Source of the DNA: a virus
Length of the DNA stretch: 64,000 nucleotides
Strand: one strand, 5' to 3'
IMG/VR virus record: IMGVR_UViG_3300045988_077137
Below the pieces are notes generated by a model. It searched no databases, was not told the origin of the DNA, and saw nothing but the letters and a program-made list of their open reading frames with translations. Shown one piece after another: positions 3,011-26,657 of the stretch (the first letter of the stretch is position 1; every line of letters begins with the position of its first letter). Both the position numbers and the translations under genes were made by a program.

Positions 3011-3496
3011 ATGATTAAGACTGGTTTAACTGAAGAGGAACTCGAACGTAGTGCCCTCTTGCTGAATGGTTTACTTGCTGACCACTTCACGCTTATGCTG
3101 AAGACTTGGCAGTTTCATTGGAATGTCGTAGGAGACTCGTTTGGTTCCTATCACGAGGCTATGCTGAAACTCTACGAAGAAGAAATTGAACGTGTTGATG
3201 ATGTTGCTGAACGTGTCCGTGCTCTTGGCAAACGTCCGCTGGGTTCTATGGAAGCAATGTTACAGAACAACCACATCAAGGAATTCGGTATGAGCGAAGC
3301 TGTTCCACAGGCTCTTGACATGTGGAAAATCATTCGTGACGACTGGGATAAGTTGATACGCTCTATCAGAGACATTCACAAACAAATCCCCGAGAATGAC
3401 CTTGCTACTCTTAACTTCCTTGAGGACATGATTGAAAGCATGGAAAAGGAAGCGTGGATAGTGCGTTCTTACAATGTTACTCCGACAGGTATTTAG
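3011..3496 (+). CDS. dps: Dps-family ferritin-like DNA-protection protein
   Basis: LLNGLLADHFTLMLKTWQFHWNVVG....YHEAMLKLYEE..ERVDDVAERVRALG matches the Dps helix A/B signature (HWNV.G). The 161-aa size is typical. Confidence 0.85.
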   Translation: MIKTGLTEEELERSALLLNGLLADHFTLMLKTWQFHWNVVGDSFGSYHEAMLKLYEEEIERVDDVAERVRALGKRPLGSMEAMLQNNHIKEFGMSEAVPQALDMWKIIRDDWDKLIRSIRDIHKQIPENDLATLNFLEDMIESMEKEAWIVRSYNVTPTGI

Positions 3497-3974: not shown

Positions 3975-4099
3975 CCCCCCCCCCCCGAAATGGTTATCGT
4001 GGTAGAGCGAGCATCACCATAATTGGCTCCTGCCTGAACGGTCACTTCCTGTGACCTCCCCCCAGAGTCTGGGGTGATTGTCAAAAAGTCTTTTTGCAT
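3971..4099 (-). CDS. 42-codon ORF encoding the N-terminal part of a BACON-like domain
   Basis: Hand translation: MQKDFLTITPDSGGRSQEVTVQAGANYGDARSTTITISGGGG*. The stop TGA overlaps the downstream ATG (ATGA). It is below the 60-aa cutoff of the ORF track. Confidence 0.5.
   Translation of the reverse strand: MQKDFLTITPDSGGRSQEVTVQAGANYGDARSTTITISGGGG
3975..3986 (-). repeat. homopolymer tract, G12 on the coding strand (C12 on plus)
   Basis: Counted directly: 12 consecutive C at 3975..3986, exactly at the junction of ORFs 3971..4099 and 3552..3974. Confidence 0.95.
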
Positions 4100-4129
4100 A
4101 ATCTTTGAAATTAAATTGTTAAACGAAAT

Positions 4130-4471
4130 TTATTTATGATTGCTTCGAAGCCTTATGTATTTCCACCACGCATAGTGTTTACGGGTCTTGAGATAGTCAG
4201 GGTTCTCATCATTATTGTGAGCCTCTTCCTCAAGACTGATATCGTGATATGCGCAGTTCTGTTTCTTGTGGAACAGCCTGATGAGTAGGTACTCAACCCC
4301 ATACCACAGGTAGAAGAACACCCAGAGCATCTCCTTCATTTGAGCCGTGTGTATCGACTCGTGCGTGATTGTTGACTCCGGTAACTGTTTACGCTTGGTA
4401 AACAGTATTCCGAAGAAGTTCAACGTATGATAATTCCCAAACGGGAACCATGTGTTATAAACTATTTTCAT
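4130..4471 (-). CDS. putative small zinc metallopeptidase-like protein (HExxH)
   Basis: HESIH motif followed by an acidic EEEAH segment, plus a hydrophobic stretch WVFFYLWYGVEYLLI. The family is not identified. Confidence 0.4.
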   Translation of the reverse strand: MKIVYNTWFPFGNYHTLNFFGILFTKRKQLPESTITHESIHTAQMKEMLWVFFYLWYGVEYLLIRLFHKKQNCAYHDISLEEEAHNNDENPDYLKTRKHYAWWKYIRLRSNHK

Positions 4472-16157: not shown

Positions 16158-16899
16158 AACGATTCCTCCTTTTCGCTTCAGACATTTTCTTTCTTGTTTC
16201 CTCGGAATGTTTCTTTCCAAAGAAATGATTTTTCTCTCCTTTATGTGATTCTGAAAGTTTCTTTTTCCATTCATCTGAAAACTCTTTCCGCTTCACCCCT
16301 TTCTTAGATTCACTAATTTTTCTACGATGTTCTTTCGAAAGAGTTTCCCCACGAAATGCTCCAATATGACCAGAATTTGCTTTAGAAATCTTTTGTTTAG
16401 CTTCTTCTGAAAGATGTTTACCTTTCATTGAAGGAAGCCTTCCTTTATTTGATTCGGATATTTTTCTCCTTGATTCTTCAGAATGTTTGTGTCCCCAATA
16501 TTTAGCAAAGTGAATCTTTGCAGCCTCCCTTGCTTTTGCACGACGTTCTTCTGTCCATACAGTTCCAACCGCTCCATCCCCACCATCCGTTGAATTGTAT
16601 CCAAATTCTTTAGTTTGAAGCCTTTTAATTAGACGCTCCTCAATGTAACAAAGTTTTGCTTTCAGAGCCTGTCTATTGGGTGCCGATACCTGAATAATTT
16701 CCTCAATCGTAAAGTTCTCAACACCGTACTTCCTCATGGCTGAATAAAGCCTGTAAGGAACTCCACGTTTCGCAGCCTGTTTATGTTCTTTGAATCGTTT
16801 CTCAATCGACTTCACTGTCTGACCAATGTAAAGTTTCCCATTAGCCAGACAGCATATGCAATAAATATGTCCTATTCCATCACAATATCTCATTTTCAA
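16141..16899 (-). CDS. GIY-YIG homing endonuclease with multiple NUMOD3 repeats
   Basis: IYCICCLANGKLYIGQT...R...H, then at least five repeats of the type GKKHSEETRKKMSEA. Confidence 0.85.
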   Translation of the reverse strand: MKMRYCDGIGHIYCICCLANGKLYIGQTVKSIEKRFKEHKQAAKRGVPYRLYSAMRKYGVENFTIEEIIQVSAPNRQALKAKLCYIEERLIKRLQTKEFGYNSTDGGDGAVGTVWTEERRAKAREAAKIHFAKYWGHKHSEESRRKISESNKGRLPSMKGKHLSEEAKQKISKANSGHIGAFRGETLSKEHRRKISESKKGVKRKEFSDEWKKKLSESHKGEKNHFFGKKHSEETRKKMSEAKRRNRYEILV

Positions 16900-19931: not shown

Positions 19932-20270
19932 CTAACCTTGGTTCAAGGACACTTTGGTAATCCAGAAGTAATTATCCGTTCCAAACTTGAAATCCTCTTT
20001 GTGAACTGACTGAATTCGCTCACGAAGCCTCTGTTCCGTCATTCCACTGGCGAAGTTATGCCCGATGTTTGCGAGTAGCGGTGTAACCTCTTGAGCGTCC
20101 CGCACCTCATTGTAGCGACATTCACGTGTCTTCAACCGTACTTCCGGAGCAACGTAGGCTCGGAACTCACCCATGATTTCTACCACGAGTATATTACAGT
20201 CACAATTCATTACAAGTCCCCGACAAGCGTCAAGGAACTCTTTCTTAGCAGCGTTATTTTCCATAACCAA
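19932..20270 (-). CDS. hypothetical protein, paralog of 21297..21617
   Basis: Shares LKTRECRYNEVRDAQ, GHNFA.GMTEQ and HKEDFKFGTDNY.WIT with the plus-strand ORF inside the cassette. Confidence 0.55.
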   Translation of the reverse strand: MVMENNAAKKEFLDACRGLVMNCDCNILVVEIMGEFRAYVAPEVRLKTRECRYNEVRDAQEVTPLLANIGHNFASGMTEQRLRERIQSVHKEDFKFGTDNYFWITKVSLNQG

Positions 20271-20598
20271 TCATTTTTTCTATTGCATTCTTCTTTCGTT
20301 GTTCTTTCTCATCAGCAGCACCACGCTTCAGTTCCCTGTCAAACCGCTGGCGCAGTATCTCCTTCTTTTTGTCGTCAGGCAGTCCCTTAAAGACGCCAAC
20401 GCTAAACTCTGGTATAGTGCTCTCAACCTCTACGAAAACCATCTGTTCGCGACAGTTAGAACACTCATACGGCTTCCCCACGATAGTAGGAACCATCTTC
20501 TTGAGTTCTTTACTGTATTTCATCACGTATTTTCCCGGAGTAAACGCCACGCCATGAAGTTCACAGGCTTCATTCGGGCAGCACAATACATATTTCAT
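20254..20598 (-). CDS. zinc-ribbon-like hypothetical protein
   Basis: Cys pairs CCPNEAC ... CSNC. Confidence 0.45.
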   Translation of the reverse strand: MKYVLCCPNEACELHGVAFTPGKYVMKYSKELKKMVPTIVGKPYECSNCREQMVFVEVESTIPEFSVGVFKGLPDDKKKEILRQRFDRELKRGAADEKEQRKKNAIEKMIGYGK

Positions 20599-21092
20599 AG
20601 ATAATGTCTCCTTCCATATTCAGCGATTAATAAACTGTCAGTCAAGTTGTCATCGGCTTTCGTGCAGTTCTCCGTCCGACGTAAATCCTGTCGAGGGAAC
20701 AACCGCTTCGCTGCAAGCACTGACATCACTTTCTTGTCGGGGTTCGGCTTGATGCCCTCGTACATTTCTTTCTGCCACTTCTTAGGAGTCACCAGCACAA
20801 TCCTCAAACCACACATGATGAACCCCATACGGAGCGCATAACATACTCCCCCGAAAGTAAACGTAGCACCCGCAGCGGAACGTGGTAGAGCGTGAACATC
20901 CTCTATCACGACAACCGTGTTATTGATGTCACACTCTTCCGATATCTGAATAATCAATTCTGACAGTTCATGCAGGTCAAGTTCCTTCCCTACCTTTGGC
21001 ATCGGATAGTGCTTGATACCTGTACTTTTCATCACCGTGATGAACCCCTGTTTTCCTGGGTCTACTCCGATAACTGTTTGTTTCTTTTCCAT
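20595..21092 (-). CDS. RuvC-like Holliday junction resolvase
   Basis: VIGVDPG (first catalytic Asp), VVVIEDV, and the C-terminal acidic DNLTDSLLIAEYG. The 165-aa size fits phage RuvC-type resolvases. Confidence 0.72.
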   Translation of the reverse strand: MEKKQTVIGVDPGKQGFITVMKSTGIKHYPMPKVGKELDLHELSELIIQISEECDINNTVVVIEDVHALPRSAAGATFTFGGVCYALRMGFIMCGLRIVLVTPKKWQKEMYEGIKPNPDKKVMSVLAAKRLFPRQDLRRTENCTKADDNLTDSLLIAEYGRRHYL

Positions 21093-21104
21093 ACTATTCT
21101 ATAT

Positions 21105-21191
21105 GGTACTGATATACATATCTACACTGGAAAATCTTAGAAAGGCTGGAGTCGGGAAATCCCCGAACCAGTCTTTTCTATTTTATTAACG
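21105..21191. repeat. left copy of the 87-bp perfect inverted repeat
   Basis: ggtactgatatacatatctacactggaaaatcttagaaaggctggagtcgggaaatccccgaaccagtcttttctattttattaacg is the exact reverse complement of 24573..24659. Confidence 0.97.
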
Positions 21192-21296
21192 GTTAATCTC
21201 TACGTTCTACTCAATCATAATCAATTCCTAAGACATCATACAGACTGCCCGACTTTTACGTTGTTAAATCAGTATTAATCATTAAAATTACTGGAT

Positions 21297-21617
21297 ATGA
21301 AATTAGATGAAAACATTTTGAAGACCTGCCAAGGACTTGTAATGAACTGTCATTGTAAGATTTTAATCCTTGATGTATTAGGTGAACATCGTGTATTCCT
21401 TGTGAATGACGTACACCTTAAAACTCGTGAATGTCGTTATAACGAAGTTCGTGATGCGCAGGACATCACTACTCTCGTATTGAATGTCGGTCACAATTTT
21501 GCTAATGGCATGACCGAGCAGACCTTACTTGAACGCACTCAATCTATCCACAAGGAGGATTTCAAGTTTGGAACGGACAATTATATGTGGATTACGCGTA
21601 TGGATTTAAATCGTTGA
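21297..21617 (+). CDS. hypothetical protein, paralog of 19932..20270
   Basis: 106 aa. By eye it is well over half identical to the minus-strand gene just outside the cassette, but it has diverged at the nucleotide level. Confidence 0.6.
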   Translation: MKLDENILKTCQGLVMNCHCKILILDVLGEHRVFLVNDVHLKTRECRYNEVRDAQDITTLVLNVGHNFANGMTEQTLLERTQSIHKEDFKFGTDNYMWITRMDLNR

Positions 21618-21621
21618 GAAT

Positions 21622-21804
21622 ATGAAGCAATCCGATGAAAAGCCAACAGTTGAAAAATGTAAAACAGAACTTGAGGAAATTGCAAAAGAAATGGGGCTTC
21701 CTATTGAAGACCCCAAAGTACCAGTTGAATGGTGTAAACGTGGTGGGTGGTATGATGATGAAGTCGCAGAAAAATTGATTACCCCTTTGTATTTCAGGAA
21801 ATAA
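21622..21804 (+). CDS. hypothetical small acidic protein
   Basis: 60-aa ORF 4 nt after the preceding stop. Confidence 0.35.
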   Translation: MKQSDEKPTVEKCKTELEEIAKEMGLPIEDPKVPVEWCKRGGWYDDEVAEKLITPLYFRK

Positions 21805-22011
21805 TCAATATTCTATTTGAATAGAATTATCTTCATATTTAATCATATCATCATCAGTGCCAAGTTCAACATCTGAAAGATTTAAAACAACTCGCTTTTT
21901 ATCTTTCTGGGTAGCATCTATTAATTCGCAATTGACATCTGTTACCTTGTAAATTTTAGATGGGCATACTTTTAATTTGACGTATGTCCCTCCCGTAATT
22001 TGTTCTTTCAT
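21805..22011 (-). CDS. hypothetical protein
   Basis: The first ATG (MKEQITGG) is at 22011. It is convergent with the 60-aa ORF and their stops abut. Confidence 0.35.
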   Translation of the reverse strand: MKEQITGGTYVKLKVCPSKIYKVTDVNCELIDATQKDKKRVVLNLSDVELGTDDDMIKYEDNSIQIEY

Positions 22012-22053
22012 AATTATTTCCCTATTAGTCTTGTTCAAATATAGGGAATTTAC

Positions 22054-22302
22054 TACTTTTGCGCAAGCCTTTCGAGGTTAAACATTGTTGGAAAATAAAG
22101 GAAAGTGCCTTAATACTCGAAGAATCGCCAATTCAATAAAAGTACAAACGAGGCACAGAGGGCAACCTATATCAAGTGGGCTGCTCATCTGTGTGTTTGT
22201 ACAAGCGTTTGGCGATGCTTTCGAGTTTACACAGGTGGCAGTCCACTTTCTTTATTATATAACGTTCTCATAGACTGTCGGGAACTCGAAAAATTCGCCA
22301 TT
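22054..22302 (+). promoter_or_regulatory. TActTTTG promoter element plus a ~240-nt structured leader upstream of the lipoprotein gene
   Basis: The -7 box is at 22054..22061. Nested stems: 22116..22130 pairs with 22210..22225, and 22142..22158 pairs with 22189..22202. A second copy of the 5' arm (22285..22300) ends 2 nt before the ATG. Confidence 0.35.
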
Positions 22303-22827
22303 ATGAAAAAGTATTTCGTTCTACCAATTATTGTAGCAGTTTTAGCTATCGGATTGCAATCGTGTTCTAAGCCAAATCCTGAATCTATGTCTGAAATCGT
22401 ACTTGAAACTATTAGTATCTATAAATCCGGTGGAGATTACTTAGGTTACATTGAAAGCCTTGAAAAGAAATATAAATGTGTTGATTATAAGGATTCCTTA
22501 AAGTTGGAAATTTCTTCAGACACAAAGATTGTTCGTAAAATGTTCACATCAGAAGATGAAAAGGTTAAAGTTCGGTTGACAGGAACAGAAGACAGTGATT
22601 GGCGTGACTTGGAGTTCATAATTTATCCTCTTACTGAAACATCTGAAAGTTATTCTGTGGACAAATGCTACAAGGAAATCAAGGAAAAGGCTAAGGAACA
22701 CAATGTCTTCTATTATTCCCTGTATCTTTATAGATACGAAGTGCCTAATTCTGTTGGAAAAATCAAGGTAGATGATGTGGAAACTCCTTTTTTCAAAGGA
22801 CTTAGATTTTATAACAAAAAACAATAG
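22303..22827 (+). CDS. lipoprotein
   Basis: Signal peptide MKKYFVLPIIVAVLAIGLQSC with a lipobox Cys followed by SKPNPES. Confidence 0.7.
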   Translation: MKKYFVLPIIVAVLAIGLQSCSKPNPESMSEIVLETISIYKSGGDYLGYIESLEKKYKCVDYKDSLKLEISSDTKIVRKMFTSEDEKVKVRLTGTEDSDWRDLEFIIYPLTETSESYSVDKCYKEIKEKAKEHNVFYYSLYLYRYEVPNSVGKIKVDDVETPFFKGLRFYNKKQ

Positions 22828-22834
22828 TACCGTT

Positions 22835-23206
22835 TTATTGCTTTAGCATCCTGTTAAAACTATTCAAATCAGCCGGACTAAGTTCCGGCTTTTTTATTAG
22901 TCCGTTTTTAGAGTCTATAAGCAATGGCAATGCCTCTGCGAGTAACATCTTAAAGCCTCGTTTGGTTTTCGCTTTAGACGATTTGTAGAGGTGATTTATT
23001 ACGGTAAACTTGTAACCTTTACCGAGCCAGTCCCAAGTGAATACATATTGTTGTGGAATGTTCTCAATAGACAGGTCATTGAAATATGTATCAATAATAA
23101 GTTGTACACCCTCTGTCCTTATGGCTACTGCTTCATCGAACATTTCAATATAGGGGACAATGATTGTTCCAAGTTTAAATTCTGTTGATTCTTTTCTTCT
23201 TTTCAT
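22835..23206 (-). CDS. hypothetical protein immediately downstream of the transposase
   Basis: 123-aa ORF that starts 2 nt after the transposase stop. No family recognised. Confidence 0.4.
   Translation of the reverse strand: MKRRKESTEFKLGTIIVPYIEMFDEAVAIRTEGVQLIIDTYFNDLSIENIPQQYVFTWDWLGKGYKFTVINHLYKSSKAKTKRGFKMLLAEALPLLIDSKNGLIKKPELSPADLNSFNRMLKQ
22871..22896 (+). terminator. rho-independent terminator after the lipoprotein gene
   Basis: Stem agccgga/tccggct with loop ctaagt, then tttttt. It lies within the 3' end of the minus-strand ORF 22835..23206. Confidence 0.6.
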
Positions 23207-23207
23207 C

Positions 23208-24140
23208 TTAAGCCGCTGATTTTCTGATTTGCTTGTATGTATAACGTGTGTCAGCGCAGCAGAGGAAGCAGTTAAATCGGTCTGAATTGCTGATGTCCCT
23301 CAGATTGTACCTATACACGAACTCATCAACGTATTTCTGTAAATACTTTTTAAGCAGAGTTCTGTATGTCCCTTTGACCATACGCTTGAAATGCGTCCAA
23401 GCACCTTCAATTCTATTAGTCGTTATGCTGTCATAACTATATAGTTTCTTACTGTGGTCTACATAGTAACGTTCATAGCTTTTTCCGATTTGATTGTAGG
23501 CATCGTTTTCATCTGTGTAAATAATAGCGTTGGGATGTACAAATTCTCTGATAAATGCAGAAAGGGTGTTGGCTTTGGTGTCAGGTGTTACCCGTGCATT
23601 CATCAGATTTTCCCGTTGTATCATTCCAACGACAGGTGCTTTATCCTTATGTGAACGTCCCTGTGAATGAGGCACTTTCTTGTCCCAATGACGATTACCG
23701 TTTCTTCCACCAACAAGGGTTTCGTCTATTTCAACAGCTTCTTCTAAGAAGTTCTCATTGGCGAGACGCATTGCGTGACGTATTTTATGCAACATATACC
23801 ATGCTGTCTTTTGCGTGACTTCTATATCGCTTGCAAGTTGGTAGGAGGAAAGACCTGTTTTGTGATTGGTTACGAGCCAAATGGCAATAAACCATTTACG
23901 TAAACTAATTTTTGTCTTTTCAAACATGGTTCCAGTACGGACGGTAAAGTTCTTACCTGTATTCTTGCAGCGATATTTACCGCTTTTCAATTTGTAGACC
24001 TTTGAAATTTTGTCAAATGGCGAAACGGGTTTGCCGTGCCAATTTATAGCTTCAAGATGTTTGATACAGGCTTCTTCCGTAGGAAATAATTCGTAAAGAG
24101 CCATGATTGATTTAGCATTAAGTTTGAATGGGTCTTTCAT
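23208..24140 (-). CDS. IS1595-family (ISXO2-like DDE) transposase
   Basis: VEIDETLVGG, IIYTDENDAY and TNRIEGAWTHFKR match the DDE signature of this family. The first ATG is at 24140, preceded by GGAGGA 7 nt upstream. The N-terminal zinc-ribbon cysteines are mostly replaced. Confidence 0.85.
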   Translation of the reverse strand: MKDPFKLNAKSIMALYELFPTEEACIKHLEAINWHGKPVSPFDKISKVYKLKSGKYRCKNTGKNFTVRTGTMFEKTKISLRKWFIAIWLVTNHKTGLSSYQLASDIEVTQKTAWYMLHKIRHAMRLANENFLEEAVEIDETLVGGRNGNRHWDKKVPHSQGRSHKDKAPVVGMIQRENLMNARVTPDTKANTLSAFIREFVHPNAIIYTDENDAYNQIGKSYERYYVDHSKKLYSYDSITTNRIEGAWTHFKRMVKGTYRTLLKKYLQKYVDEFVYRYNLRDISNSDRFNCFLCCADTRYTYKQIRKSAA

Positions 24141-24325
24141 AAGGCTGTCCTCCAAATTTTAATGATGTTACAATTTACAAAAATTGATTGATTCAACAAT
24201 GAGTTCACGGAGAAAATCTTGATAGAAATCTGATAACCTCCTGTGCATATAACGAAAAAGTTGAGGACGGAGTAACTCAATTTACGGTTAAATGATGTGA
24301 AGATGATGGAGGAAAGATACGTTAT

Positions 24326-24362
24326 ACAATAAAATAGCCTCTCCGTGGTGTGGAAAGGCTAT
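24326..24362 (-). terminator. rho-independent terminator downstream of the 27-codon ORF
   Basis: Stem atagcctctcc/ggaaaggctat (10 of 11 bp) with a 7-nt loop, followed on the minus strand by TTTTATT. Confidence 0.5.
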
Positions 24363-24384
24363 CAAACTAAATTATTTGCTTAAT

Positions 24385-24468
24385 TCAATATTCATATTCG
24401 AATATTTGAAACTTTGAAATCATTTCAAGAAGTTCGTTTGCTTCTTCTATTGATAGTTCTTCAAACAT
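24385..24468 (-). CDS. 27-codon acidic mini-ORF with a strong Shine-Dalgarno sequence
   Basis: Hand translation: MFEELSIEEANELLEMISKFQIFEYEY*. AAAGGAGGTG (24475..24484) lies 8 nt upstream of the ATG. Coding status is unproven. Confidence 0.3.
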   Translation of the reverse strand: MFEELSIEEANELLEMISKFQIFEYEY

Positions 24469-24520
24469 TTTCGGCACCTCCTTTCACACCGTGAAGATAC
24501 GAAGAATAACCAAGAAGAGC

Positions 24521-24560
24521 AAATAACAAAATAGAGCCTTTCTTAACGATTGGCTCTATT
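24521..24560 (-). terminator. second hairpin terminator downstream of sbcC
   Basis: Stem aatagagcc/ggctctatt with a 13-nt loop, followed on the minus strand by TTTGTTATTT. Confidence 0.4.
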
Positions 24561-24572
24561 CTATTTGGAAAA

Positions 24573-24659
24573 CGTTAATAAAATAGAAAAGACTGGTTCG
24601 GGGATTTCCCGACTCCAGCCTTTCTAAGATTTTCCAGTGTAGATATGTATATCAGTACC
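24573..24659. repeat. right copy of the 87-bp perfect inverted repeat, covering the last 11 codons plus stop of sbcC and its terminator
   Basis: Exact reverse complement of 21105..21191. It contains the codons for GTDIHIYTGKS*, the imperfect hairpin ctgg-tt-cggg/cccg-act-ccag (24593..24618) and a T-run on the minus strand. Confidence 0.97.
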
Positions 24660-26657
24660 TTCTATATAACTGTAACCGTTTTCCTTCACGACGGTGAGAG
24701 TGGTTACACCAGCACGAATATTCATGACGTGACTGATTACATATACAGGATGATGAACGTCGCTCATTGATTCAAGTAGAAGAGCCAAGCCCAACGGGTC
24801 TGTGCCCTCAAGAACCTCATCAATCATTAGGAAGTGAAGTCCTCCCCATTGGTTCGTTCCGTTAATCATTTCCTGAAATGCTTGTATCAGAGCCATTTCA
24901 ATTCTTGCTCTCTCGCCTCCGCTAAACGACCAGAATGATTTATATTCGCCCTCGCCATTGATGACTGATACAGTTATCTCCTCCTTGATTTTCCCTTTCG
25001 CATTTCGCTTGAACCCGTCTATTGATAGGCGAAGTTCTGACCGCTGCTTTTGTAAGGACATATTCGCGAAGTTCTGAATTATCCGTAACTGCTCACAGGC
25101 GAGGCTCATCTTGAATTCCTTGAAACGCAATCCCCACTGTACCATGTCTGATACCTGTTTCTCGCACTCTCCGTATTCCTTGTTTGCCTTTTCGAGTTTC
25201 TTTTTCGTCAGGGCAACAAGACCTTCCAGTTCGGCTTCTTTGGTTTCCATTTCAGCCTGTTCAGCCTTTTCAAGTTGTTCAACCAACTGTTCGCTCTCAC
25301 TGTTACAACGTGATTGAATCCCTTCTTGATGCTTGATATCTTCTTGGTAGGAGGATATCATTTGGTTGCTTCGGGTTATCTCCCCACGGATTTTTGTTAT
25401 CTCTGCTTGAACCTCACGAATGGCTCTGACTGTACCCTGTTCCTGAACACGTATCTTCATGAACTTGTCGTCGTACTTTTTCACTCGTTCCTCAAATGAG
25501 TTAAGTTCTTCCAACGCTGTTTTCGCAAGGTTTTCCTGGGTCTCGGCTTCCTTCTTCTGGCTTTCAATTTTCTTCCGAGTGGTAGGAACATCAACCGTTT
25601 CATCTGATGTCACGAACTCCGTTCCACACTTCGGACACTTTACAGTCCCTTTCAGGATAGCCGTGAGGCGGTTGGCTTCGGCAGTGTACTGTGAGGACAG
25701 TTCCTGTGCTGCTTTACGCTTCTTCCTCGCTGCCTCTACCTTTGTATCAGTCGAAGAACGTTCTTTCGTTAGAGAGTCATATTGAGCCTTATAGTCAATC
25801 GCTTCTAATCCCTCTAACTTCTTAGAGGCTTCAGTGACTTTCTTCTGGTTGTCCTTGATACTCTGTTCAGCCAACTTGATAGCCGTCCGGGAATTCTCAA
25901 TCTTCTTTTCCGCTCCGTCGTACTCCTGTATGACAGCGTCAATTCGTTCGTTTATACGCTCTATAAGTGATTGTCGTTCCTCCTCAAGATTACGTTCTCG
26001 CTCCTCAGCCAACTGTGTCTCATAGACACCCAATTCACCCTCTATCTTTTGAACCTTTCCCAAGGCAACAGCCTTCTTTTCTTCCAACGGCTTAATCTTC
26101 TCTTTGATTACGCTGTCAGAGTCGTCTAACTGTTCAGCCTTAATGAAGCGATTTATCAACGACAGTTTGTCGGAGTTGGATGACGAAACGAATGACTTGA
26201 AATTCTCTTTGTTAAGGATATAGAAACTCTTCAGGTCTTCCGAGGATATACCTATCCAATTCAAGATGTAAGCGTTCCCGTCATTGACGGTTGCTACCTG
26301 TACCGAACCCTCTTCCTCATTAATCATGAGTTCCAATGACGCTGAACCTTTCTGTCTCAGGGTTCTATGTATATTCAGCGTTTCTTTCCGTATCGGGCAG
26401 TAGATGTCAAGCCAGATGTCCGCCTCTTCTTCACCCCACAAGATTAAGTCCCTGTCAAGTGTTTGTTTCTTGAGCGAGTTAGCAAGGATTGCATACGCAA
26501 TCCCTGCTTCCATCGTACTCTTCCCTGCTCCGTTCGTTTCCTTTGACTCTATCTCCGTCAGGTTCTTTCCCTTGATTAAGACAGGCTCATTCACGAACTT
26601 ATGCTTCAGTTCCTTGAATGACAGGAAATTCTTCAAACGCAAATAGGTGAGTTCCAT
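24624..26657 (-). CDS. sbcC: SbcC/Rad50-like recombination ATPase
   Basis: Walker A NGAGKST, a long coiled coil with the zinc hook CPKCG, ABC signature SGGERARIEMA and Walker B LMIDEV. Confidence 0.85.
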   Translation of the reverse strand: MELTYLRLKNFLSFKELKHKFVNEPVLIKGKNLTEIESKETNGAGKSTMEAGIAYAILANSLKKQTLDRDLILWGEEEADIWLDIYCPIRKETLNIHRTLRQKGSASLELMINEEEGSVQVATVNDGNAYILNWIGISSEDLKSFYILNKENFKSFVSSSNSDKLSLINRFIKAEQLDDSDSVIKEKIKPLEEKKAVALGKVQKIEGELGVYETQLAEERERNLEEERQSLIERINERIDAVIQEYDGAEKKIENSRTAIKLAEQSIKDNQKKVTEASKKLEGLEAIDYKAQYDSLTKERSSTDTKVEAARKKRKAAQELSSQYTAEANRLTAILKGTVKCPKCGTEFVTSDETVDVPTTRKKIESQKKEAETQENLAKTALEELNSFEERVKKYDDKFMKIRVQEQGTVRAIREVQAEITKIRGEITRSNQMISSYQEDIKHQEGIQSRCNSESEQLVEQLEKAEQAEMETKEAELEGLVALTKKKLEKANKEYGECEKQVSDMVQWGLRFKEFKMSLACEQLRIIQNFANMSLQKQRSELRLSIDGFKRNAKGKIKEEITVSVINGEGEYKSFWSFSGGERARIEMALIQAFQEMINGTNQWGGLHFLMIDEVLEGTDPLGLALLLESMSDVHHPVYVISHVMNIRAGVTTLTVVKENGYSYIEGTDIHIYTGKS

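Follow-up and report, generated by a model that had tools for sequence, protein, structure and literature searches.

The analysis of a stretch of 64,000 nucleotides (hereafter referred to as the window) belonging to the IMG/VR virus record IMGVR_UViG_3300045988_077137 revealed that the 3555-bp segment at positions 21105-24659, located between the phage sbcC gene and a gene encoding a RuvC-like Holliday-junction resolvase, is almost certainly a complete and intact copy of a transposon of the IS1595 family, harboring passenger genes and newly inserted in the genome of a Bacteroidales phage. In a first-pass annotation of the same DNA, this segment had been interpreted either as an invertible "moron" cassette driven by recombination or as a recently acquired mobile island. 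The latter proposal is borne out by the duplication of the target site, by the existence of 22 contigs in which the site is empty, and by the identical copies of the element located elsewhere.

The boundaries of the element are sharply defined. The two 87-bp arms, already recognized in the first-pass annotation as perfect inverted repeats, are indeed so: a direct comparison of 21105-21191 with the reverse complement of 24573-24659 gave 87 identities out of 87, and the inverted repeat stretches to 95 nt (97%) once partial matches are allowed. A perfect 87-mer cannot have arisen by chance within 64 kb. An 8-bp direct repeat, TTCTATAT, which had previously been overlooked, abuts the outer edge of both arms and is present in a single copy in the phages lacking the element. 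The in silico removal of the element and of one copy of this repeat yields the sequence ...AACGGTTACAGTTATATAGAATAGTATGGAAAAG, i.e., on the minus strand, ...AAC GGT TAC AGT TAT ATA GAA TAG T ATG GAA AAG..., in which sbcC ends with ...NGYSYIE-stop and the ATG of the RuvC-like gene starts just one nucleotide after. Since the removal restores this sbcC-stop-T-ATG junction, the segment can be regarded as a transposon inserted with an 8-bp target-site duplication.

The first-pass annotation had suggested checking whether sbcC and the RuvC-like gene are adjacent in related phages. The search with the RuvC-like protein retrieved 22 related viral contigs (73-100% protein identity), in all of which sbcC directly adjoins the RuvC-like ATG and in none of which the repeat is present. 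In the 18 closest contigs, the ...YIE-stop is located 1-4 nt ahead of the ATG, and in the four most distant ones the two genes abut or overlap. Three contigs (L017, L026, and L027) read ...ATATAGAATAGT immediately followed by ATGGAAAAGAAA, which corresponds base for base to the reconstructed empty site; moreover, a reconstructed empty-site segment of 10 kb gave one colinear alignment across the junction in 18/22 contigs, with identities of 80-98.3%.

The same comparison clarifies the origin of the 3' end of sbcC. The native end of SbcC is ...NGYSYIE (residue 666), and residues 667-677 (GTDIHIYTGKS) are encoded by the transposon, the outer 36 nt of the right terminal repeat corresponding to the codons for the last 11 residues plus the stop. 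The alignment with the SbcC homologues of cultured phages ends at residue 665/666 of the 677-aa protein of the window. Because both these homologues and the phages with an empty site end at YIE, the transposon has contributed the 11 terminal residues, the stop, and the subsequent hairpin; the idea that the repeat carries the 3' end of sbcC has to be reversed.

Copies of the same element were sought by looking up the exact sequence of the lipoprotein encoded by its cargo gene, which retrieved ten metagenome contigs of 58-520 kb. These contigs hold chromosomal genes of Bacteroidales type, i.e., SusC/SusD pairs, glycoside hydrolases, and genes of conjugative transposons. The whole 3555 bp, including both 87-bp arms, is 100.000% identical in seven of the ten; two others differ by one base, and the remaining one is 98.3% identical. 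Nine different insertion sites are represented among the ten further copies, and at every one of them the element is bordered by a separate 8-bp duplication (TAAAACAA, TATTTTAT, TGATATTT, ATAAGTTT, AAAAATAG, TTAATTAT, CGTAATAG, TTTTTTTA, and TAATTTAA). The four main proteins of the element are each identical to RefSeq entries labeled "MULTISPECIES ... [Bacteroidales]", and each of them is found on at least about 1000 contigs; the element is very common in human-gut Bacteroidales. Its mobility is thus documented by the 22 empty-site relatives together with the identical copies at nine other sites.

The assignment to the IS1595 family, proposed from the sequence in the first-pass annotation, was substantiated by the analysis of the transposase, which matches the full length of the PF12762 profile (positions 2-153 of 153, E = 2.8e-38) and the NCBIfam model NF033547 "IS1595 family transposase" with 196.9 bits (cutoff 75). 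The protein is identical to the RefSeq sequence WP_117959405.1, "MULTISPECIES: IS1595 family transposase [Bacteroidales]", present on at least 1000 contigs. Its start is probably the ATG at 24140, preceded by GGAGG, which gives a protein of 310 aa; EIDET, YTDEN, and NRIEG..K in its translation contain the candidate catalytic acidic residues. As had been observed, the gene is followed by a 123-aa open reading frame (ORF), separated from it by a 1-nt gap. It is known that 8-bp AT-rich target duplications are a trait of the IS1595 family (PMC12561309), and that some members carry passengers, such as MTnSag1 and tISCpe8, whose ends are reported as 25 bp (PMC5704250). As in these transporter insertion sequences (ISs), orf106, orf60, orf77, the leader, the lipoprotein gene, and orf123 all lie inside the ends of the element and were co-transferred in every identical copy. 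A compound transposon was also considered and rejected, there being a single transposase gene and 87-bp arms without any transposase ORF. While the class of the element is known, the literature searches, which did not extend to ISfinder, found no published description of this particular one.

A few observations weigh against this interpretation. The match of residues 25-64 of the transposase to the zinc-ribbon profile PF12760 (E = 5e-5) reaches 23.6 bits versus a gathering score of 25.4, and the perfect 87-bp ends far exceed the lengths quoted for members of the family already described (14 bp in ISApl4, 25 bp in MTnSag1 and tISCpe8). Two copies related to the element (L007 and L047) lack matching duplications and a third locus (L010) has a solo end; these irregularities look like secondary rearrangements or assembly chimeras. 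Lastly, the activity of the element is presumed from its many identical copies with distinct duplications.

The insertion presumably occurred during the infection of a Bacteroidales host. According to the mechanism of the family, the DDE transposase would have bound both terminal inverted repeats and the element would have inserted into the AT-rich 8-bp target TTCTATAT, overlapping the last codons of sbcC; the repair of the staggered cut would then have produced the 8-bp duplication. The reading frame of sbcC now runs 11 codons into the transposon end before reaching a stop, and is cut off cleanly there. At present, the 3555 bp of the element and the second copy of the duplication separate sbcC from the RuvC-like gene, which is no longer tightly coupled to it; in the scan for TAnnTTTG, no Bacteroides -7 box pointing outward, as would be needed to transcribe the RuvC-like gene, was detected around the left end.

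The ends themselves have an unusual structure. Reading inward, each 87-bp end first closes every one of the three frames with a stop codon and then presents a GC-rich hairpin, GGCUGGAGUCGGGAAAUCCCCGAACCAGUC, and a U-tract, UUUUCUAUUUU; this arrangement suggests that the ends might halt both translation and transcription arriving from outside. The outer 64-79 nt are 93-100% conserved across all the related elements.

Different explanations of the cassette have to be weighed against its being a transposon. The one favored by the first-pass annotation is that homologous recombination, promoted by the phage or by its host, between the two arms flips the 3.4-kb interior as a programmed switch of the lipoprotein gene. 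The 87 bp of perfect inverted homology are available, genes for RecA, SbcCD, and a resolvase are present in the phage, and, the arms being identical, the flanks remain unchanged in either orientation; in addition, insertion sequences of Wolbachia are known to flip between their terminal repeats at 9% of the loci (PMC3004938). Nevertheless, a programmed switch appears very unlikely. The arms are the element's own ends, identical in every copy of this variant at every site, and were not shaped by the phage. Being identical, they would also retain no trace of a past flip. The two independent assemblies of the locus, i.e., the window and L048, share the same orientation, and the same holds for the other same-site groups (L049 with L051, and L042 with L045 and L046); in these three groups of assemblies, which include one (L048) of the seven contigs carrying the sbcC fusion, no interior in the opposite orientation at the same site was found, and the 36-nt junction between sbcC and the end had no match in IMG/VR or JGI metagenome contigs. 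Moreover, since a separate promoter and leader precede the cargo gene, it need not be expressed in an orientation-dependent way. No invertase is present either: in agreement with the previous observation that serine and tyrosine invertases are missing, no recombinase domain was detected in any ORF of the region 19.9-26.7 kb, and a site-specific inverton was rejected for the lack of a recombinase. An occasional flipping between the terminal repeats, also within phage populations, is physically possible and would be a side effect rather than the nature of the structure.

That the cassette might be an assembly artefact, in which the phage was joined to a repeated bacterial element via a short shared sequence, is highly improbable. 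It is true that assemblers are confused by this element, since viral and metagenome-assembled genome (MAG) contigs (L001, L002, L004, and L005) break inside it. Yet both junctions are precise, the phage sequence resuming exactly where it had been left, with the 8-bp duplication expected from transposition; the window and L048 are 100% identical across both junctions and flanks; and the fused 677-aa SbcC-transposon protein is recorded on seven contigs of 50-200 kb, which argues that the insertion is not a one-off misassembly. The insertion is real and apparently tolerated by the phage. Hardly any weight can be given to the last possibility, i.e., that the cassette is ancestral phage DNA deleted in all the relatives or a moron gained by illegitimate recombination. 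It might be evoked by the phage-backbone paralogue of orf106 and by the homologue of the leader RNA in the Bacteroides phage BS-TP1; against it stand the 22 relatives without the cassette, spanning 73-100% RuvC-like identity and showing a clean single-copy target site, and the 100% identity between the element and chromosomal copies, which are inserted at many sites with separate duplications. The guanine plus cytosine (G+C) content also disagrees with such an origin, being 7 points lower in the element than in the phage. The loss of ancestral DNA in the relatives was discarded, as it is contradicted by the target duplication and by the identical chromosomal copies.

Table 1. Features of the transposon and of the flanking phage genes, with their coordinates in the window.
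Feature	Coordinates	Strand	Basis or remark
Phage-backbone paralogue of orf106, 112 aa	19932..20270	-	65% identity
RuvC-like Holliday-junction resolvase gene	20595..21092	-	PHROG 1770 at 6e-23
Target-site duplication, left copy, 8 bp, TTCTATAT	21097..21104	.	Read directly
Left terminal inverted repeat, 87 bp	21105..21191	+	Read directly
orf106, conserved passenger	21297..21617	+	Phage-associated family, 133 homologues, none named
orf60, variable passenger	21622..21804	+	Window-type and L001-type variants only
orf77, variable passenger	21805..22038	-	Separate -7 box of Bacteroides type at 22043 (minus strand)
Bacteroides-type -7 box TACTTTTG, fitting TAnnTTTG	22054..22061	+	Conserved in the 48-sequence alignment
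Structured leader RNA, about 160 nt	22096..22257	+	Covariance-model match, 179 bits
Cargo lipoprotein gene, 174 aa, signal peptide and LQSC lipobox	22303..22827	+	Hypervariable position among copies of the family
orf123, conserved, 1-nt gap downstream of the transposase gene	22835..23206	-	
Terminator-like hairpin and T-run after the lipoprotein gene	22871..22890	+	Terminator scan
IS1595-family DDE transposase	23208..24155	-	PF12762, NF033547
Terminator-like hairpin, 12 pairs and T-run, between the right end and the transposase gene	24333..24363	-	Terminator scan
27-codon ORF MFEELSIEEANELLEMISKFQIFEYEY, strong AAGGAGG 7 nt upstream	24385..24468	-	Between the right end and the hairpin at 24333-24363
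Right terminal inverted repeat, 87 bp	24573..24659	-	Read directly
Target-site duplication, right copy, 8 bp, TTCTATAT	24660..24667	.	Identical to the left copy
Phage sbcC	24624..26657	-	PHROG 77 at 5.4e-57

The composition and the gene orientation of the element also differ from those of the phage, as the first-pass annotation had guessed by eye, recommending a windowed G+C check. The G+C content is 36.4% in the interior and 36.6% in the whole element, compared to 43.8% in the rest of the window; the lowest value found in any other 3555-bp segment is 38.5%, which is above that of the element. The rarity of plus-strand genes holds as well: among the ORFs of 150 aa or more in the window, 49 are on the minus strand and just two on the plus strand, namely 3011-3496 and the lipoprotein gene. 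Conversely, the statement that the interior contains the only two Shine-Dalgarno-like sites is not correct, since the sites at 24482 and 24153 (minus strand) do exist but similar ones are found in other parts of the window, e.g., at 16170, 20612, and 620. The part of the element holding the 27-codon ORF is not conserved in the other variants.

Besides the identical copies, diverged variants of the transposon were disclosed by a scan with the 26 outermost nt of the arm. Their length is 3430-4325 bp; some are carried by other viral contigs, and the rest by genomes or MAGs assigned to Bacteroides, Phocaeicola, Paraprevotella, and Alistipes. Target-site duplications were recognized in L003 (TTTTATTA, between phage tail genes), L008 (AAATTTTA), L012 (TTTTGTTT), L013 (AAAATTTA), L042 (TAAAGAAT), L043 (TAATTTTA, inside the brxC gene of a BREX locus), and L044 (TTAAATTC); altogether, sixteen distinct 8-bp duplications are found at insertion sites other than that of the window. 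As the position of L003 between tail genes exemplifies, the transposon family has entered more than one phage lineage. The transposase, orf123, and orf106 are conserved in all the full-length variants, and the interval between orf106 and orf123 is variable.

Some of these loci show peculiar features. The variant of L043 (9028-13352, 4325 bp, duplication TAATTTTA) harbors additional genes coding for DUF2806 and BACON-domain proteins, and its insertion in the BREX defence locus cuts brxC into two fragments. Degenerate relatives of the transposon were noticed as well. L047 contains a full copy whose flanks do not match, and in L007 (4660-5612) just 953 bp are left, in which the transposase is truncated and the duplication is missing. 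In L010, an Aphodosoma MAG, a solo 75-nt end (4045-4119) lies beside a site-2-protease-like gene, and in L011 (Alistipes putredinis) a partial end of 41 nt is located at 351-391. Several public "viral" contigs, i.e., L001 (MT839549.1), L002, L004, L005, L059, and L060, terminate inside this transposon family, which thus repeatedly interrupts the assembly of gut viromes.

As for the passenger genes, none of orf106, orf60, orf77, the lipoprotein gene, and orf123 gave significant matches in Pfam, PHROGs, NCBIfam, or PADLOC, and the lipoprotein had no match in the Protein Data Bank (PDB) either. The paralogy of orf106 to a flanking phage gene, previously suggested, is confirmed by the 65% identity with the 112-aa gene at 19932-20270, and the orf106 family includes other phage-backbone copies of this kind. 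The AlphaFold2 model of orf106 has a predicted local distance difference test (pLDDT) value of 90; it found no fold match in the PDB (best E = 0.1, template modeling score 0.39), and in the viral structure library it matched two uncharacterised phage proteins and nothing else. The model of orf123 (pLDDT 58) was too poor for a fold search. A further member of the orf106 family, P0060 (110 aa, on contigs of up to 106 kb), has a mosaic appearance when compared with the window copy at 19932-20270 and with L003 8753-9073: its N- and C-terminal parts are similar to the phage-backbone proteins, and its middle part, DITTLVLNIGHNFVNGMTEQALLERTQSIHKEDF, matches the transposon-borne copy. This mosaic structure hints at possible recombination or gene conversion events between phage and transposon copies.

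The lipoprotein gene occupies a position that is hypervariable among the copies of the transposon family. The first-pass annotation had assigned to it a promoter and a terminator of its own, and both could be recognized, together with the LQSC lipobox: a -7 box at 22054 and a hairpin with a T-run at 22871-22890. The latter, which represents the downstream border of the variable cargo slot, overlaps the invariant PELSPAD motif near the 3' end of orf123, which is transcribed convergently, and the same sequence may thus serve a double duty, as a terminator-like hairpin and as the PELSPAD codons. The promoter search relied on the TAnnTTTG -7 box in place of a sigma-70 scan; the number of sigma-70-type matches is the same as in shuffled sequence and is uninformative for Bacteroidales. 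The box at 22054 is the putative promoter that drives both the leader and the lipoprotein gene.

The region between this box and the ATG of the lipoprotein gene (22303) contains a leader that is conserved in all the variants despite the different downstream gene. A scan of metagenomes with three invariant blocks, which biases the sample toward close relatives, retrieved at least 120 loci or contigs. Among the matches listed (n = 147), the ORF located 3' of the leader always encodes a protein with a signal peptide or transmembrane segments, belonging to more than 25 unrelated families; most of the matches fall in loci that also contain transposon genes, and 10 fall in loci in which none was detected. 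A covariance model built from 18 sequences gave a single match in the window, at 22096-22257.

Covariation was computed on 48 leader sequences sharing less than 96% identity. The terminator-like helix, of 16 bp and followed by a U-tract, joins alignment columns 192-208 to 249-267 (22174-22190 and 22227-22243 in the window) and is paired in 97.8% of the cases, with eight compensatory pairs; the helices crossing it, ACUCGAAG/UUUCGAGU, AUCGCCAA/UUGGCGAU, and GUACAAAC/GUUUGUAC (22115-22131 and 22142-22149 with 22193-22224 in the window), are paired in 93.8%, with 9 of 24 pairs compensatory. According to pair-counting measures, both sets of helices exceeded all the 500 shuffles and all the slid controls, and the leader sequence of the window has a minimum free energy of -65.3 kcal/mol (z = -5.3). 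An inner hairpin was dropped as support, its covariation being barely above that of the shuffled control. The comparison of the leader with the 4227 families of Rfam 15 gave no match: the best hit, Ms_IGR-7, reached 18 bits versus a gathering score of 45 (E = 0.21), no other family had E < 1, and the whole element had no match either. These data suggest that the leader may be an attenuator or a riboswitch-like RNA, with two conserved and mutually exclusive pairings, one of which is terminator-like.

The same motif was found (143 bits) at positions 3995-4154 of the cultured Bacteroides salyersiae phage BS-TP1 (L181, PQ571274.1), in an intergenic region upstream of gp102, which encodes a multi-pass membrane protein, with no transposon genes nearby. 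The motif is thus not exclusive to the transposon. Its presence in BS-TP1 and the membership of orf106 in a phage family suggest that a phage-derived module may be shuttled by Bacteroidales transposons between chromosomes and phages. The leader/cargo module might be involved in surface remodelling or in superinfection exclusion. The whole proposal, in which the transposon would be more than a hitch-hiker and would convey a regulatory RNA not described before, together with an exchangeable gene for a surface protein, can be advanced only tentatively and is, on balance, rather doubtful.

The striking perfect inverted repeat of this uncultured phage of about 110 kb thus represents the ends of an ordinary transposon rather than a new switch. 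The identity of the element to copies embedded in chromosomes of Bacteroidales type points to a Bacteroidales host for the phage and indicates that such phages can carry transposons of this kind between cells; the foreign tail of SbcC and the split of the otherwise abutting sbcC and RuvC-like genes, seen in seven assemblies, represent a tolerated arrangement. The unusual features of the element are its very long ends with stops and a putative terminator, the leader unclassified in Rfam, the hypervariable slot for secreted proteins, and the passenger shared with phages. Beside the link between phage and host and the unusual ends, the chief point of interest is the leader RNA with its swappable slot: if the leader is a real regulatory RNA, it would represent a new RNA class present on at least 120 metagenome contigs.

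Among the known systems, the closest to the element are the transporter ISs of the IS1595 family, e.g., tISCpe8 of Clostridium perfringens, MTnSag1 of Streptococcus agalactiae, and the "+" subgroups of Siguier et al. 2009, as cited in PMC5704250 and PMC12561309. They have in common with it the reliance on one DDE transposase of the IS1595 type, the presence of terminal inverted repeats with an 8-bp AT-rich duplication, passengers enclosed within one pair of ends, and many copies at unrelated sites. Their ends measure 14-25 bp, whereas those of the window element are 87 bp long, perfect, and provided with three-frame stops, hairpin, and U-tract. The passengers of the window element are not resistance or mobilisation genes: they comprise a gene of a phage family, the 123-aa ORF, and a promoter-leader module with a hypervariable gene for a secreted or membrane protein. 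The host clade, Bacteroidales, differs as well.

The inversion of ISs in Wolbachia (PMC3004938) relies on the same mechanism put forward in the first-pass annotation, in which recombination between the ends flips the interior; those flips were seen through chimeric, non-identical ends, whereas the ends in the window are identical and no same-site copy in the opposite orientation was found. With the Gin/Hin/Cin systems (phages Mu and P1) and the Bacteroides invertons, the element shares a segment bracketed by inverted repeats, the location in a phage, and a surface-protein gene; unlike in them, neither the segment nor its surroundings encode a serine or tyrosine recombinase, and the repeats are 87 bp long versus sites of about 20-30 bp. 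Moreover, unlike in invertons, the target-site duplication and the empty sites indicate transposition. As for the leader, it differs from riboswitches in having no Rfam match and in preceding genes for secreted or membrane proteins that are unrelated to each other, instead of a metabolic pathway; like attenuation leaders and riboswitches, it is a 5' leader placed right after the promoter, with a long conserved helix followed by a U-tract and a second, mutually exclusive set of helices showing compensatory changes.

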